This document shows, in pieces, positions 7,247 through 15,536 of a DNA stretch of 18,886 nt. Positions within the stretch are counted from its first letter, which is position 1; each line of letters starts with the position of its first letter. The notes below the pieces were generated by a model. That model was not told the origin of the DNA. It saw nothing but the letters and a program-made list of their open reading frames with translations, and did not search any database. A program made the position numbers and the translations under genes. This DNA comes from a virus (Duplodnaviria; Heunggongvirae; Uroviricota; Caudoviricetes), in the IMG/VR virus record IMGVR_UViG_2690316002_000017. One strand, given 5' to 3'.

Positions 7247-9019
7247 ATGACCATCACCACAGACACCACTCTTTTACACGACCCGCGTCGTCAGGCGGCG
7301 CTGCTGTACTGGCAGGGGTTTTCCGTGCCGCAGATTGCCGCCATGTTGCAGATGAAACGCCCGACGGTGCAGAGCTGGAAACAGCGCGACGGCTGGGACA
7401 GCGTTGCCCCCATCAGCCGTGTCGAAATGAGTCTGGAAGCGCGGCTGACCCAGCTCATCATCAAACCGCAGAAAACCGGTGGTGACTTCAAGGAAATTGA
7501 CCTGCTCGGACGCCAGATTGAACGACTGGCACGGGTAAACCGCTACAGTCAGACCGGCAACGAGGCAGACCTTAATCCGAACGTCGCTAACCGCAACAAA
7601 GGCGGGCGTCGCAAACCGAAAAAGAATTTTTTCAGTGACGAGGCCATCGAAAAGCTGGAGCAGATTTTCTTTGAGCAGTCTTTCGACTATCAGTTGCACT
7701 GGTATCGCGCCGGGCTTGAGCACCGCATCCGCGATATCCTGAAATCCCGCCAGATTGGCGCGACGTTTTATTTTTCCCGCGAGGCGCTGCTGCGTGCCCT
7801 GAAAACCGGTCATAACCAGATTTTTCTGTCGGCCAGTAAAACGCAGGCGTATGTGTTCCGCGAATACATCATCGCCTTTGCCCGTCTGGTTGACGTTGAC
7901 CTGACCGGTGACCCGATTGTCCTGGGCAATAACGGCGCAAAACTGATTTTTCTCGGCACCAACTCCAACACCGCGCAGAGTCATAACGGCGACCTGTACG
8001 TCGATGAGATTTTCTGGATCCCGAATTTTCAGATACTGCGTAAGGTGGCATCAGGTATGGCCTCACAGAGTCACCTGCGCTCGACCTATTTCTCCACCCC
8101 GTCCACGCTGGCGCACGACGCCTACCCGTTCTGGTCGGGTGAACTGTTTAACCGGGGACGCGCCAGTGCCGCCGAACGCGTGGAAATCGACGTCAGTCAT
8201 AACGCCCTTGCCGGTGGGCTTCTCTGTGCGGACGGCCAGTGGCGACAGATTGTCACCATTGAGGACGCCCTGAAAGGCGGCTGCACGCTGTTCGACATTG
8301 AGCAGCTCAAACGCGAAAACAGCGCCGACGATTTTAAAAACCTGTTCATGTGTGAATTTGTTGACGACAAGGCATCGGTGTTCCCGTTCGAGGAGCTGCA
8401 ACGCTGCATGGTCGACACGCTGGAAGAATGGGAAGACTATGCGCCGTTTGCCGCCAATCCGTTCGGCTCCCGCCCGGTATGGATTGGTTACGACCCGTCA
8501 CACCGTGGCGACAGCGCCGGATGCGTGGTACTGGCACCGCCGGTGGTGGCCGGTGGCAAATTCAGAATACTTGAGCGTCACCAGTGGAAAGGTATGGACT
8601 TTGCCACCCAGGCGGAATCCATCCGCAAACTCACCGAAAAATATAACGTCGAATACATCGGTATTGATGCCACCGGCCTCGGTGTCGGCGTGTTCCAGCT
8701 CGTGCGCTCGTTCTATCCCGCCGCGCGCGATATCCGCTACACGCCGGAAATGAAAACCGCAATGGTGCTCAAGGCAAAAGACGTTATCCGTCGTGGCTGT
8801 CTGGAATATGACGTCAGCGCCACCGACATCACCAGCTCGTTTATGGCTATCCGCAAGAGCATGACCAGCAGCGGACGCAGCGCCACCTATGAGGCCAGCC
8901 GCAGCGAGGAAGCCAGCCACGCCGACCTCGCATGGGCGACCATGCACGCCCTGTTAAATGAGCCACTCACCGCCGGTATCAGCACACCGCTGACATCCAC
9001 CATTCTGGAGTTTTACTGA
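7247..9019 (+). CDS. P: Terminase large (ATPase) subunit P
   Basis: ATG at 7247 preceded by GGCGAGG gives a 590-aa product starting MTITTDTTLLHDPRRQAALLYWQGFSVPQIAAMLQ, the size of P2 gpP. The track ORF starts 10 codons earlier. Confidence 0.95.
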   Translation: MTITTDTTLLHDPRRQAALLYWQGFSVPQIAAMLQMKRPTVQSWKQRDGWDSVAPISRVEMSLEARLTQLIIKPQKTGGDFKEIDLLGRQIERLARVNRYSQTGNEADLNPNVANRNKGGRRKPKKNFFSDEAIEKLEQIFFEQSFDYQLHWYRAGLEHRIRDILKSRQIGATFYFSREALLRALKTGHNQIFLSASKTQAYVFREYIIAFARLVDVDLTGDPIVLGNNGAKLIFLGTNSNTAQSHNGDLYVDEIFWIPNFQILRKVASGMASQSHLRSTYFSTPSTLAHDAYPFWSGELFNRGRASAAERVEIDVSHNALAGGLLCADGQWRQIVTIEDALKGGCTLFDIEQLKRENSADDFKNLFMCEFVDDKASVFPFEELQRCMVDTLEEWEDYAPFAANPFGSRPVWIGYDPSHRGDSAGCVVLAPPVVAGGKFRILERHQWKGMDFATQAESIRKLTEKYNVEYIGIDATGLGVGVFQLVRSFYPAARDIRYTPEMKTAMVLKAKDVIRRGCLEYDVSATDITSSFMAIRKSMTSSGRSATYEASRSEEASHADLAWATMHALLNEPLTAGISTPLTSTILEFY

Positions 9020-10053
9020 TGAGCAAGAAAAAAGGGAAAACACCGCAACCTGCGGCAAAAAAAATGACCGCCAGCGCCCCGAAAATGGAGGCATTCACCT
9101 TTGGTGAGCCGGTGCCGGTACTCGACCGCCGTGACATTCTGGATTACGTCGAGTGCATCAGTAACGGCAGATGGTATGAGCCACCGGTCAGCTTTACCGG
9201 TCTGGCAAAAAGCCTGCGTGCTGCCGTGCATCACAGCTCCCCGATTTACGTCAAACGCAATATTCTGGCCTCGACATTTATCCCGCATCCGTGGCTTTCC
9301 CAGCAGGATTTCAGCCGCTTTGCGCTGGATTTTCTGGTGTTCGGTAATGCGTTTCTGGAAAAGCGTTACAGCACCACCGGTAAGGTCATCAGACTGGAAA
9401 CCTCACCGGCAAAATATACCCGCCGTGGCGTGGAGGAGGATGTTTACTGGTGGGTGCCGTCCTTCAACGAGCCGACACCTTTCACGCCCGGCTCCGTGTT
9501 TCATCTGCTGGAGCCGGATATTAATCAGGAGCTGTACGGCATGCCGGAATATCTCAGCGCCCTTAACTCTGCCTGGCTGAATGAGTCAGCCACGCTGTTC
9601 CGCCGCAAGTATTACGAAAACGGCGCACATGCCGGATACATCATGTACGTCACTGATGCCGTGCAGGATCGCAACGATATCGAAATGCTTCGCGAAAACA
9701 TGGTCAAGTCGAAAGGCCGCAACAACTTTAAAAATCTGTTTCTCTATGCCCCGCAGGGAAAAGCCGACGGCATTAAAATTATCCCGCTCAGTGAAGTGGC
9801 AACGAAGGACGATTTTTTTAATATCAAAAAAGCCAGCGCCGCTGACCTGCTGGACGCGCACCGCATCCCCTTTCAGTTGATGGGCGGCAAGCCGGAGAAC
9901 GTCGGGTCGCTGGGTGATATTGAGAAAGTGGCAAAGGTCTTTGTCCGCAATGAGCTTATCCCGTTACAGGACAGGATCCGCGAGATAAACGGCTGGCTCG
10001 GTCAGGAGGTCATCCGCTTTAAAAACTACTCACTGGACACTGACAACGGCTGA
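9019..10053 (+). CDS. Q: Portal vertex protein Q
   Basis: 344-aa ORF starting MSKKKGKTPQPAAKKMTASAPKMEAFTFGEPVPVL, the size and position of P2 gpQ. Start overlaps the P stop (TGATG). Confidence 0.95.
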   Translation: MSKKKGKTPQPAAKKMTASAPKMEAFTFGEPVPVLDRRDILDYVECISNGRWYEPPVSFTGLAKSLRAAVHHSSPIYVKRNILASTFIPHPWLSQQDFSRFALDFLVFGNAFLEKRYSTTGKVIRLETSPAKYTRRGVEEDVYWWVPSFNEPTPFTPGSVFHLLEPDINQELYGMPEYLSALNSAWLNESATLFRRKYYENGAHAGYIMYVTDAVQDRNDIEMLRENMVKSKGRNNFKNLFLYAPQGKADGIKIIPLSEVATKDDFFNIKKASAADLLDAHRIPFQLMGGKPENVGSLGDIEKVAKVFVRNELIPLQDRIREINGWLGQEVIRFKNYSLDTDNG

Positions 10054-10080: not shown

Positions 10081-10217
10081 ACACCCCGCCATCACGCCCT
10101 CACACGCTCACCACCGCACAAAACATCCCGCAGACAACGCCCCGGCTAACAATCTAAACGCCATCACGACGCGCTCAGACGCTGAAAAAATAAAATCAGC
10201 ACCACCGCCAGCGCGCA

Positions 10218-10353: not shown

Positions 10354-11547
10354 TTAAATTCTGCATCCATCGGTTTGAAAATGTGATCCGTTTTTCGAAT
10401 TCAAACTCAACTCTGTTTGACTCTTTTGAACATTAATAGTTTTACCAGTAAGGACATCCAAAACCCCTGCAGCAACAGCCTGCGCCAATTTACAAGGCAC
10501 AGCATTCCCTATCTGACGCCAAATTGACGAATTTTTCCCCACAAAGACATAATTACTCGGGAATGTTTGAATCAAAAGAGCCTCATCTATCGTTAGTCGA
10601 CGTAAACGACTAGGTACATCGTGCATATCTTTTGGCTCACCACCATTCATTAGATGATTATGATAAGTCTCAACATAACTTGTTGAGCCATCATAAAGGT
10701 GTTCTTCATCAATAATTGGTGTCCTATTCCCCCCCATAGAAGCAGCTATAGTTGAAGCATACCCATTCGGGTTAATTGGTCTTCCCTGCCCGTTAAACAT
10801 CATTCCCGCGTAAGGTGACTTCCGTAATACTGGCTTAGCAGCATTTGTAATCCTTGCATTACAGACTCTTGAATTGTTTGGATTACCCGCTCGCCCTAAA
10901 GGCCGAATAATCTCACCAACTGTGGGCGAAAGATATTGGTATTTTTTTATCGCCGCCTCAACTCGTTTCACATCATTTTCGGAACGAAACCCTATAAAAA
11001 ACATACGTTCCCTATTCTGAGGAACGCCAAAATCTTTAGAATTCAGCACCAGCAAGGCTGAACGATAGCCTGACTTTTCAGCCATCTTAAACAGTTCACA
11101 CCTAACTGGTTCAAATTTGGACAACTGTGCTAAAGCCTTAACATTCTCCATAACAAAGCATTCTGGTTGAATTATATCCACCGCCCGCATGAATGACATA
11201 ACCAGCTTACTACGTGGATCATGAGCGTCCATTTTCCCTGCCACAGAAAATCCTTGGCATGGAGGCCCACCAAAAACACAACCTATATTTTTCAGCCCAG
11301 ACAATTCACTTAGCATCTCATCAATATCACCACAAAAAACAGGTGATTCATGATTAAGCTTAAATGTATCACATGCATCCTTATCTATATCATTGGCCCA
11401 AACTGTTCGGAACCCGGCATTAGAGAAACCGACATCCATCCCTCCTGCCCCAGTAAATAAGCTCACCGCTGAAATTTTGTTCACTTCTTTAGCACCAATT
11501 ATTCGATTTTGGAATAAAACCAATGATAGGTAAGGATCGACACACAA
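10354..11547 (-). CDS. DNA (cytosine-5)-methyltransferase
   Basis: Canonical C5-MTase motifs in order: FTGAGGMDVGF (motif I, AdoMet), GGPPCQGFSVAGK (motif IV, catalytic Cys; nt about 11247-11270), ENV (VI), QNRERMFFIGF (VIII), GNAVPCKLAQAVA (X). The track ORF starts at a TTG (11547). A GTG at 11484 (product MNKISAVSLFTGAGG...) is a plausible true start. AT-rich by eye. Confidence 0.85.
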   Translation of the reverse strand: MCVDPYLSLVLFQNRIIGAKEVNKISAVSLFTGAGGMDVGFSNAGFRTVWANDIDKDACDTFKLNHESPVFCGDIDEMLSELSGLKNIGCVFGGPPCQGFSVAGKMDAHDPRSKLVMSFMRAVDIIQPECFVMENVKALAQLSKFEPVRCELFKMAEKSGYRSALLVLNSKDFGVPQNRERMFFIGFRSENDVKRVEAAIKKYQYLSPTVGEIIRPLGRAGNPNNSRVCNARITNAAKPVLRKSPYAGMMFNGQGRPINPNGYASTIAASMGGNRTPIIDEEHLYDGSTSYVETYHNHLMNGGEPKDMHDVPSRLRRLTIDEALLIQTFPSNYVFVGKNSSIWRQIGNAVPCKLAQAVAAGVLDVLTGKTINVQKSQTELSLNSKNGSHFQTDGCRI

Positions 11548-11837
11548 TCAATCACCTTCTAAACCACATGGCAAAACGACAACCAACTATACATGATCAT
11601 AGATACAGGTGCCTAGTCCAGCTTCTCACCAAACTACGCAAAGAAGCTTCTCTTTCGCAGTCAGAATTGGCCATTTTTCTAGGATTATCACAATCAGATA
11701 TATCTAAAATCGAAAGCTTTGAAAGGCGATTAGATGCTTTAGAACTATTTGAATTATTAGAGGTGGTTGCAAGCCGATTAGGTCTACCAATGGATATCTT
11801 ACTAAAGGACACCTATGAAAGTATTAGTAAATCATGA
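11523..11837 (+). CDS. Small helix-turn-helix protein, candidate R-M controller (C protein)
   Basis: 104 aa with an XRE-like HTH (LSQSELAIFLGLSQSDISKIESFERRLDALELFELL). Divergent from the methyltransferase and directly upstream of the nuclease-like gene. An alternative start at ATG 11568 would give 89 aa. No strong Shine-Dalgarno at either. Confidence 0.6.
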   Translation: MIGKDRHTINHLLNHMAKRQPTIHDHRYRCLVQLLTKLRKEASLSQSELAIFLGLSQSDISKIESFERRLDALELFELLEVVASRLGLPMDILLKDTYESISKS

Positions 11838-12161
11838 GCAAGCCTATAATGCAATTATAAATGCAATCAACGATGCAAAAAATTAACTGATTACAAAACA
11901 AATAATCAATGGGTCTCCATTCAAAATGTAATTTTAGGCACCCACCTTACATACAGATATATACTTATTACTGGTTTACTTGCAAAAGCAACAGACCCTA
12001 GAGTAAACCCTCTGGCTTTACAAGCTAATGCCCCCGTAGACGGAGCCTATGATGCAAGAAGTTTATGTCATTCGGTAATAGTAGGCAAAGTAGAAGGCCC
12101 ATTTTTAGAGGGTAAGTTAGGCGCATCAAATGAGCCATTTCTAAATAAACCTGCTCGTTAC

Positions 12162-12869
12162 ATGCTCCACTCCTCTGATAACCCTGTGCGCAGAGGAAAT
12201 GATAAGGTTTTACAACAACTTTCAATTGATATATTACATGCAGCAACAACCCAAACCTTAGCTTATGAAATGCTTGTTATTGCATTATATTTTACCCTAC
12301 AGCGAACCAATAGAGTTATAACGCCGAACTCAATTAATTTTGATTTTCATAAGATTATTTATAATATTATATCTCATCCTTGTGATGGAGAAACATGCGC
12401 GATTGCTGCCGCAATTTCGTTACATTTATTAGGTGAACAAAGAGGATGGATAATAAAAGCACATCCCGTCAATCAGGCCGGTAGCTCCTCAAAAGAGATA
12501 CTGGACATAGATGTATATCATGACGATATAGTTTTCCTTTCTATAGAAGTGAAAGACAAACCATTTAATTATCAAGATGTTAATCACGCCGTTTCAAAAG
12601 CATCTGCATCCGGGATTTCAAAAGTTATCTTCCTTAAAGGGCCAAGAGCAACAAACTTAGATATTGATGAGTCTCTTGCGATTGAGAACGCTGCGACAAA
12701 AGGTATTTCACTAAGCTTTAGTGACGTCATGACATTCACAACAACATGTTATGCGTTATCGCCACTATTAAGTAATGACAGAATAATAGATTTCATAAAT
12801 AACACTTTAAAAGACATCAGAGCTAAAGATAGCACTATAGAATACATACAATCCATATTTAAAAATTAA
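12162..12869 (+). CDS. PD-(D/E)xK nuclease-like protein, candidate Type II restriction endonuclease; 5' end uncertain
   Basis: 235 aa from the first ATG. Contains LDIDVYHDDIVFLSIEVKDK (nt 12501-12560), with an acidic residue at the end of one predicted strand and a hydrophobic run ending in E-V-K. No Shine-Dalgarno before ATG 12162, and the frame is open for 104 codons upstream (see findings). Confidence 0.55.
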   Translation: MLHSSDNPVRRGNDKVLQQLSIDILHAATTQTLAYEMLVIALYFTLQRTNRVITPNSINFDFHKIIYNIISHPCDGETCAIAAAISLHLLGEQRGWIIKAHPVNQAGSSSKEILDIDVYHDDIVFLSIEVKDKPFNYQDVNHAVSKASASGISKVIFLKGPRATNLDIDESLAIENAATKGISLSFSDVMTFTTTCYALSPLLSNDRIIDFINNTLKDIRAKDSTIEYIQSIFKN

Positions 12870-12962: not shown

Positions 12963-15271
12963 TCATAATTCATACGCTCTCCAATCACATATAACAGGAT
13001 AACTGAAGCTTCTCCCGTCGTAATTTACAGTTGCCCCACGCGCCAGCGCCTCAAGCTCCCATCGCTGCGGCCTGATACCGTTCTGAGCAAGGTCAACGCG
13101 GATAAGGGTGATTTGCAATCGTTCAGACCTGGTCAGTCTGGCCGATGGTGCTATTTCATGCGGTTTTAACGGGCTTCCGTTTCTTTGCTGACGGTTTGGT
13201 GTTATCAGGTCGTGTTTTAATGCGCCCCTGAGCGCCCTCACGACCTCCGGGTCATTCCATTCGATAACACCGTCATCAACCAGATTAAGCACTGCTGCGG
13301 CGTGTTCAGAAGGTGTGGGAGCCGGTAACGAAGTATCACCACTGGTGAGCTTTCCACAGTTATTGACAGGACTCCGAGGCGCGGCGATGCCGCTTTTTAA
13401 AGTCAAAGGCTCAACGACCGGAACTTTCGGCACAATGCGCCAGTCCGTCGTTCTGGTGATATGAATATGACGCGCGCCGAGATGCGGCGCGTAAATGCCG
13501 ACCACTCTCTCGACTTCTTCCTCGTACTCGTTAACGTCATCCNNNNNNNNNNNNNNNNNNNNNNNNNNNNNNNNNNNNNNNNNNNNNNNNNNNNNNNNNN
13601 NNNNNNNNNNNNNNNNNNNNNNNNNNNNNNNNNNNNNNNNNNNNNNNNNNNNNNNNNNNNNNNNNNNNNNNNNNNNNNNNNNNNNNNNNNNNNNNNNNNN
13701 NNNNNNNNNNNNNNNNNNNNNNNNNNNNNNNNNNNNNNNNNNNNNNNNNNNNNNNNNNNNNNNNNNNNNNNNNNNNNNNNNNNNNNNNNNNNNNNNNNNN
13801 NNNNNNNNNNNNNNNNNNNNNNNNNNNNNNNNNNNNNNNNNNNNNNNNNNNNNNNNNNNNNNNNNNNNNGCTGCCCATCCAGTGCATAGCCGTCGATATT
13901 TTTTGAGATGTATTTCGCGATATACCCCGCAGCACCGCCCCGATTAAGATGTTTTGCCTGAAAACGGTTTCGCGCGGCTCCTCTTTCGTCGCCATCCTCT
14001 TTGAGCGCATAGCGACGCATGATTTCGATAATCTGGTTACGCTGGCGTGGATTACAAAAAAGCATCATATGCCAGTGCGGCGTTCCGTCGTGGTGTGGCT
14101 CGACGACTCGCAAACCGTAGACCTGTAAATCATTATCCTTGAATGCCGTGCGCATCAGGCTCCAGATACGGCAGAGATAACGCTGCGCATCCTTTGGATT
14201 AAATGCCTCATCATTCCAGCCGTGATTAAGCTGGACGGTTTTATTTTCGCCTTTTCCAACCTGACGTGTCGGGTGATACTTTGACGGCGCGGTAAGCGTG
14301 ATAAACATCCCCACATCACCCTCTGCGGCGGCGTAACGCTCAATACCGGCAATGGTGTTCATCAGCTCCATCCGGCGAATTTCAGGATTAGAAATACTGC
14401 CCATCACCTTACTGATAAGGTCGATGCGCTCGCCGGTTTCCCTGTTTTCAAGGTCACACGATTTAAGAAATTCCAGATTTGCCTGGCGGCGCGCACGCAC
14501 ATCACGAATGGCATGTTTACTGGCATAAGGAGAACGGTCTTTATTGACCTCCCCGACAGCTATCAGTAACGCCTCATGCCAGCGCATACGCTGGCCTTTA
14601 AGCTGATGAGTCCACCACTCATCGTTAAACAGGCGGGCAATGGCAGAATATGCCTGCCTCGTGGTCATCTGTCCTTTACGGTATTTTTTCCAGTAGAGCG
14701 GGGAAATATTGAAAGCACGTGCAGCGCCAGCAACATGACCATAGAGGTGAGCCTGCGCCTCATCCGTAAACAGCGATTCTTTTTCGCCATGTGCATCAAC
14801 CCAGGCATCGCAGAGTTCCTCATACATCATGAAAAGCTGCGATGAGATACGGGCAGCAAACTTTTTCAGCTCCTTGTCATTCATTCCCGGCAGGCGCGCA
14901 TAGTGGTCACGCTCTGCCAGAAACAGCAACGACGCGTCGGTGTTCATTTCATGGCGCTGATTCACACGCTCAATGCGCGGCCATAAACGACGCTGAAAAG
15001 TGGATGTGAGGAAATAAAACCCGTGCACCGGGCTTTTATTGCGCCGGATGTAGTCATAGCGTGAAGTAAACAGCGAGCGCAAAAAGTAAGGCAGGCGGTT
15101 AATCGTGGATAAAACACCTTGCACCTGATGCATCTCGTCACGTGTAAGGGGTCTTTCGCGCCCGACGGCCTCGCGTGGCGCGTTCCATGCATAAGCACCG
15201 GTAAACGCCTTACCGGTGCCTGCAGCAAATGCTGACGGAGGGACAAAACGCCCGGAGGCTTTAACGGCCAT
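12963..15271 (-). CDS. A: Replication initiation protein A (rolling-circle initiator), interrupted by an N-run
   Basis: ATG at 15271 gives MAVKASGRFVPPSAFAAGTGKAFTGAYAWNAPREA. Upstream of the gap are HHDGTPHWHMMLF and the active-site-like GYIAKYISKNIDGYALDGQ. After the gap the C-terminal part (DDVNEYEEEVERVVGIYAPHLGARHIHI...YPVICDWRAYEL) continues in a different frame relative to the Ns. Track ORFs 13403..15313 and 12963..13505 are the two pieces. Confidence 0.9.
13543..13869. other. Run of 327 N inside gene A (gap or mask; length not frame-consistent)
   Basis: Directly visible. The A frame before and after the run differ, so the run length does not equal the missing sequence length modulo 3. 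Confidence 1.
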
Positions 15272-15536
15272 ATGAGCCAAAAGCCTCTGAACAACGCCTG
15301 CTGAGTTGCTCAACCTGCGCGTTTAAATCAGCAAAAGATTTTGCGCTTCCGGTCAGAATATCGTGATGCATCAGGCCGGAAACGAGCTGGCTTAATTTCG
15401 GATAATAACCAACCACCGCCAGCCATTCCTGACCGGCGTTTTTACCGCTTTCCGCTCTCTTTTTCTCGTGGAGAATAAACTGAAAGCTGTCACTGGTAAC
15501 GACATAACGTTCGCCAATTTCAATACGAATACTCAT
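15261..15536 (-). CDS. Hypothetical early-operon protein just upstream of A
   Basis: 91-aa ORF with ATG at 15536 overlapping the stop of the upstream zinc-finger gene. Its 3' end overlaps the A start by 11 nt. Position corresponds to the small orfs preceding A in P2. Confidence 0.6.
   Translation of the reverse strand: MSIRIEIGERYVVTSDSFQFILHEKKRAESGKNAGQEWLAVVGYYPKLSQLVSGLMHHDILTGSAKSFADLNAQVEQLSRRCSEAFGSYGR

Follow-up and report, generated by a model that had tools for sequence, protein, structure and literature searches.

A recent one-base deletion in an A tract has very probably made a pseudogene of ecoT38IR in a P2-like Escherichia coli prophage

Introduction

The closest described relative of the locus reported here is EcoT38I, a type II restriction-modification (R-M) system of E. 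coli TH38 that is carried on a P2 prophage (Kita, Kawakami & Tanaka 2003, J Bacteriol 185:2296, as cited in PMC2853133, ref 21). Its control protein, C.EcoT38I, is among the known C proteins from systems with a predicted site (PMC2632904), and in P2-like phages the cos-proximal interval between gpA and gpQ is a defence hotspot (Rousset et al. 2022, PMC9122126). In the EcoT38I system (PDB 7e8r and 7edb) the methylase gene (M) is divergent, the C gene overlaps the start of the nuclease gene (R), and the genes lie between P2 genes A and Q. The nuclease itself, R.EcoT38I, has a helical domain at its N-terminus and a PD-(D/E)XK nuclease domain at its C-terminus. The recognition sequence is reportedly GRGCYC, and C is said to have a regulatory role. 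For SacI and EcoICRI, the literature that we found consists of cloning papers only.

Other described systems offer further points of comparison: the cargo of the P2 hotspot, EcoO109I on P4-like satellites, orphan methylases that arose from decay of the nuclease gene, and the so-called savior indels, as in the G7 run of the herpes simplex virus (HSV) thymidine kinase gene, where an indel is offset by low-level frameshifting (PMC5009743). Short homopolymers matter in several of these cases, and in E. coli genes runs of AAAAAAA are under-represented, for which a proneness to indels through slippage has been suggested as the reason (PMC4066793).

Here we analyze an R-M cassette in phage DNA of 18,886 nt (the whole stretch, called the window below). 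The cassette has the layout of EcoT38I and the same site between genes A and Q, and it differs in that its R gene is broken by the loss of one base, A7 to A6, at codons 22-24.

Results

We identified the nuclease gene from its long reading frame (plus strand, 11850-12869), which consists of 340 sense codons followed by one stop. The frame matches the Pfam family RE_SacI (PF09566) with an E-value of 3.6e-73 and 247 bits (curated cut-off, 19.3 bits); the match starts at residue 13 of the translation from 11850, right after the A tract, and does not include profile positions 1-24. A profile of 61 family members led to one solved structure, PDB 7e8r, the EcoT38I restriction endonuclease (351 aa, E 3e-144), and a 99% identical relative (P0001) aligns with 7e8r over residues 1-351 with one substitution (E 1e-233). 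Because both the family profile and this relative match 7e8r, we assign the nuclease gene and its neighbours to the EcoT38I system: the gene is ecoT38IR, which encodes the SacI-family restriction endonuclease of that type II R-M system. When the A is restored, the window protein is 351 aa long and two residues apart from 7e8r, and V13A and V298I are its only changes from the common allele. Codon 15 reads AUA, which agrees with the table entry for the EcoT38I REase in PMC6456624. The window gene shares with the SacI family both the profile match and the invariant motifs of the PD-(D/E)XK core (D231, D233 and E245-x-K247), and departs from the family in being frameshifted and in a specificity that is GRGCYC-like, not strictly GAGCTC. 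An unbroken frame of ~350 aa from the conserved N-terminus is absent in the window: a TAA at 11884-11886 follows after 23 codons, and the rest lies in another frame.

To judge by its relatives, the true start of R is ATG 11815, in a third frame, with a product of 351 aa when the gene is intact. In RefSeq relatives, R is a 1,056-nt CDS that begins at the equivalent of 11815; in the window this ATG is preceded by a Shine-Dalgarno-like AAGGA 5 nt upstream (plus strand, 11805-11809), and the 22 N-terminal residues read from it can be aligned even with family members of as little as 39% identity. The gene is therefore found in two pieces on the plus strand. The 5' fragment (11815-11886) comprises ATG 11815 and 23 codons up to the premature TAA, overlaps the C gene by 23 nt, and reads MKVLVNHEQAYNAIINAINDAKN before the stop, one codon past the A run; this open reading frame (ORF), missed by the first-pass annotation of the sequence, is the real 5' end of the nuclease gene. 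The 3' part (11883-12869), codons 24-351, carries the RE_SacI match, is out of frame with the start, and belongs to the frame that is open from 11850. Gene callers report a 235-aa ORF instead (plus strand, 12162-12869), which begins at the first ATG after the frameshift. This ATG has no Shine-Dalgarno sequence, as the first-pass annotation had remarked (the preceding sequence is AAACCTGCTCGTTACATG), and the ORF is without residues 1-116, which contain 22 of the 45 columns that are invariant across the 61 homologues. The 235-aa ORF is probably not a real product, and we infer that it would not be a functional enzyme.

The first-pass annotation had been struck by the long frame because 104 codons upstream of ATG 12162 contain neither stop nor start, which it held to be more than chance. 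Direct counting bears this out: there are no stops and no starts in the 104 codons at 11850-12161, the first ATG, GTG or TTG of the frame is at 12162, and the other two frames have 12 and 9 stops over the same interval. Mononucleotide shuffles of this segment (37.5% GC) were stop-free in 57 of 100,000 cases, and a composition model gives P of about 5e-4. That the upstream codons are coding sequence, as had been suspected, follows from the family alignment: homology continues upstream of the M at 12162, and the homologues, with lengths of 350-370 aa, align over about 100% of the query. The three short ORFs described in the second frame (11834-11860, 11861-11890 and 11909-12001) are present where they had been placed, and the helix-turn-helix (HTH) gene is indeed in the same frame as the long stretch, separated from it by TGA and TAA (ESISKS, stop, ASL, stop, CNYK). 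This shared frame is a by-product of the one-base deletion.

The deletion lies in the A6 run at 11877-11882 (plus strand), which had already been noticed as a frame junction and at which, as alignments and tract lengths show, the relatives have one more A. The tract is A7 in all 28 other copies that we compared, made up of 20 complete E. coli genomes, 7 IMG/VR contigs and 1 human-gut metagenome contig; neither A8 nor A5 was found in any of them. A 77-nt query with A7 matched at 100% in each of the 20 complete genomes, and alignment to four E. coli loci produced a single gap, A7 in the relatives vs A6 in the window. A scan for the tract in the contigs of species-representative genomes found no copy, and a search of a phage collection with the cassette found no match. 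Since the other copies are all A7, restoration of the 351-aa protein requires the gain of one A, not a loss. One intact copy, on an IMG/VR contig (L011), matches the window at every position of the 2,651-nt cassette save for one extra A, and its 351-aa protein (P0150) occurs on 16 contigs. Because this one base is the sole difference from an intact copy, the deletion is very recent.

The same allele is found outside the window. Two independent Logan assemblies, SRR1186599 and ERR124657, have A6, the linked C at 11852 and the exact 235-aa product from ATG 12162, and this product has been deposited twice, as KDZ47706.1 (E. coli 3-073-06_S1_C1) and as CUA47437.1. With two independent assemblies and two NCBI protein records carrying it, A6 is a genuine mutation. 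The sequences from the A6 read sets differ from the window at a single base, which lies 3 nt away from the end of a contig. The three A6 sequences being essentially identical, the allele may stem from a single event in one lineage; the isolates behind SRR1186599 and ERR124657 may be closely related, and it is possible that a mixed A6/A7 population underlies the assembled A6 sequences. Over ~18 kb of alignment with strain 64 (L004), the best whole-window relative, we found one other indel, 5 bp long and intergenic: at 10135, downstream of the portal gene and near the expected cos region, strain 64 has a CACAC that is missing in the window.

The two neighbours of R are intact. The gene for an m5C DNA methyltransferase of the M.EcoT38I type (minus strand, 10354-11547; Pfam DNA_methylase, 1.4e-66) encodes the same protein as that annotated as intact in a relative (L001; 397 aa, WP_001488173.1), and its DNA is without differences from that of L011. 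The start of M is uncertain, either TTG 11547, as in RefSeq relatives, or GTG 11484. The C gene, an HTH regulator (plus strand, 11523-11837; Pfam HTH_3, 1.8e-6), encodes a protein identical to the 104-aa HTH protein of L001, and this exact protein is found on at least 1000 contigs. The arrangement is that of a C-controlled type II operon: C lies upstream of R, is co-oriented with it and overlaps the R start at 11815, and M is on the opposite strand. A repeat search of 11430-11600, upstream of the C gene, for inverted repeats of at least 8 nt, as would resemble a C-box, found none. Given that M and C are identical to genes annotated as intact, the most likely state is restriction-minus and modification-plus. 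On this sequence evidence, the strain would have lost EcoT38I restriction and would still methylate its sites, so that the methylase would effectively be an orphan.

Annotation of these two genes varies between records. M is annotated with 397 aa in L001 and the window and with 384 aa in strain 64, a difference that accompanies a T-to-A change at 10395; its start is called at TTG 11547 or shorter, giving 376 and 361 aa. The C start is called at ATG 11523 or, as the RefSeq alternative, at ATG 11568. The methylase gene (minus strand) also contains a C7 run at 10729-10735 that is C6 in FORC_082 (L003) and in an IMG/VR contig (L013), where it frameshifts the methylase and leaves the nuclease gene intact. 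A frameshifted methylase beside an intact nuclease should be lethal if real; because the portal gene of FORC_082 is frameshifted as well, and L013 has three further 1-bp deletions, the C6 of these two records looks like an assembly error. In NCTC9088 (L002), M lacks a single base elsewhere, at 11247.

Among 5,426 complete E. coli genomes, 20 contain the 2,651-nt cassette at an identity of at least 99.5%. In all 20 it is chromosomal and lies in a P2-like prophage, between the genes for the portal protein and the replication endonuclease. The cassette of the window lies exactly there, flanked by the portal gene (9019-10053) on one side and by the replication endonuclease gene, which begins at 12963, on the other: it is cargo of the gpQ-gpA hotspot in a P2-like E. 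coli prophage. Other P2-like prophages have a DUF7380 protein or an AAA ATPase at the same position. Compared with such cargo, and with EcoO109I on P4-like satellites, the window is distinct in that its defence gene is broken. In the R.EcoT38I cluster (P0123, clustered at 90%), a 351-aa member from Salmonella enterica is encoded by 14 contigs, which shows that the cassette also occurs outside E. coli.

The gpA replication endonuclease gene of the window contains a masked run of 327 N at 13543-13869. It causes the split of gpA into two frames (12963-13505 and 13403-15313), which we had considered as a second frameshift or a sign of sloppy assembly, and which is not due to an indel. An otherwise identical contig (L005) has 289 bases where the window has 327 N, showing that the mask length is not the length of the hidden sequence, and reading frames therefore cannot be followed across it.

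Discussion

We have found that the nuclease gene of an EcoT38I system is interrupted by the loss of one base, at a position where all 28 other copies that we compared read A7. Our interpretation, which we hold to be very probable, is that a recent A7-to-A6 deletion made ecoT38IR a pseudogene beside intact M and C genes. Replication slippage would have shortened the A7 run at codons 22-24 to A6 in one strain lineage; translation from ATG 11815 would then end at TAA 11884 after 23 residues, leaving the remaining 328 codons stranded as an open frame that has no start. This is an ordinary loss-of-function allele of an R-M system that was already known. It resembles the orphan methylases produced by decay of R and the savior indels in that a one-base indel in a short homopolymer disables one gene, and it differs from them in that the window offers no evidence for selection or for compensatory frameshifting. 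Among the explanations put forward in the first-pass annotation, a frameshift that kills the nuclease and spares the methylase is the one best supported by these data; its view of the upstream codons and of the A6 junction has held as well, and what has to be replaced is its reconstruction of the ancestral gene, with respect to both the start and the length of the tract.

That reconstruction took ATG 11861 or 11873, in the second frame, as the start, so that A5, or a +1 ribosomal slip, would yield a nuclease of ~336 aa. The arithmetic holds, since a deletion of one base does join the second frame to the long frame, but A5 occurs in no relative and A7 in all of them, and the intact relatives start at ATG 11815 and have 351 aa. 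We also examined the protein ends: MQSTMQK, which this start would give, is without a homologue; MKVLVNHEQAYN.IINAINDAK, in contrast, can be aligned throughout the family, and the solved EcoT38I protein begins MKVLVNHEQ. There is practically no chance that the earlier model is right. A different kind of explanation, also raised at the outset, is that A6 is a homopolymer error of sequencing or assembly, and that the true sequence is A7, with the nuclease gene intact. The lesion does sit in a homopolymer, and other assemblies of the cassette contain error-like single-base deletions: FORC_082, with the methylase and portal genes both frameshifted, and L013, in which M and R together have lost single bases at four places, including the C7 tract that is affected in FORC_082. 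Against this, the same A6 was obtained in two runs that differ in sequencing, assembly and archive and stands in two NCBI protein records, and over ~18 kb the window has no other 1-bp indel relative to its closest relatives. We regard an error as highly improbable, and the deletion as real.

If the deletion is real, it might still be something other than decay. Classic contingency loci usually have tracts of 8 or more bases, by which high-frequency slippage switches a gene ON and OFF, and the A tract of R could in principle be such a switch, with restriction ON at A7 and OFF at A6 or A8. Like the tracts of known phase-variable R-M genes, it is found near the start of the gene (codons 22-24), and a second 235-aa truncated product (P0151, on 2 contigs; STI05309.1 and MCS1743630.1) is known, which, as it sits in the background of the common allele, reveals at least one further independent disruption of the N-terminus. 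The tract, however, is with 7 bases shorter than the classic ones; the 28 other copies are uniformly A7 and never A8, with A6 in a single haplotype; and about 1000 contigs encode the intact protein vs 2 for each truncated form. Furthermore, the second lysine encoded by the tract varies in homologues (KN, KR, RG, KA, KS), so that the family as a whole does not conserve the tract. Phase variation, another of the options first listed, is in our judgment very unlikely. Much the same holds for programmed recoding, in which a -1 slip on A_AAA_AAT, or transcriptional slippage, would produce meaningful amounts of the full-length enzyme from the A6 allele. In the frame of 11815, positions 11877-11883 make up a canonical X_XXY_YYZ heptamer with a stop codon directly after it, a -1 slip there recreates exactly the wild-type DAKKLTDYK, and the HSV thymidine kinase G7 run provides a precedent. 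On the other side, we detected no downstream stimulatory structure (fold z = -0.38) and no Shine-Dalgarno-like element is visible upstream. In E. coli, heptamers that lack a stimulator exceed the frameshifting background, about 0.055%, only 2- to 10-fold (PMC4066793). The arrangement in two frames, moreover, occurs in no relative, all of which have a single ORF. This lack of conservation indicates that the two-frame layout of the A6 allele is not programmed, and we give recoding on a meaningful scale only a very small probability.

A weaker form of slippage has to be distinguished from both. Since a trace of -1 slippage on A_AAA_AAT would regenerate the wild-type protein, 'inactive' may here mean 'almost inactive'; trace-level compensation of the kind known from the savior indels is possible in principle at this locus too. 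It is a further step, and one for which the chances are slim, to regard the A6 allele as a reversible or leaky OFF state from which R.EcoT38I is restored by rare A6-to-A7 reversion or by trace -1 slips. Were this true, a lineage of lysogens could tune restriction without losing the gene, which would be a case of a savior indel in a defence system, and the truncated form of the P0151 type would reflect recurrent switching at the tract.

Under the pseudogene interpretation, the main value of the present result is for annotation: the records KDZ47706.1 and CUA47437.1, labelled 'SacI restriction endonuclease', are artefacts that gene callers derived from a frameshifted ecoT38IR, for which the proper annotation would be a pseudogene that starts at 11815. 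The A6 allele raises no new question; it adds another mobile R-M system that has lost its nuclease and kept its methylase, here within the P2 defence hotspot.

We also counted GRGCYC sites, in the window and in five further carriers of the cassette (L004, L007, L010, L011 and L013), with two P2-like prophages that do not have it (L014 and L015) for comparison. The 18.9-kb window has 0 sites vs about 15 expected, whether from dinucleotide shuffles or from a Markov model of first order (Poisson P about 3e-7). In the prophages without the cassette there are 2 sites in 29.7 kb (L014) and 4 in 33.4 kb (L015), of which at least 4 of the 6 lie in cargo or IS DNA, and in the flanking chromosome a site occurs roughly every 3.5 kb. 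Avoidance of GRGCYC seems to be a property of the P2 backbone, not only of the prophages that carry the system.
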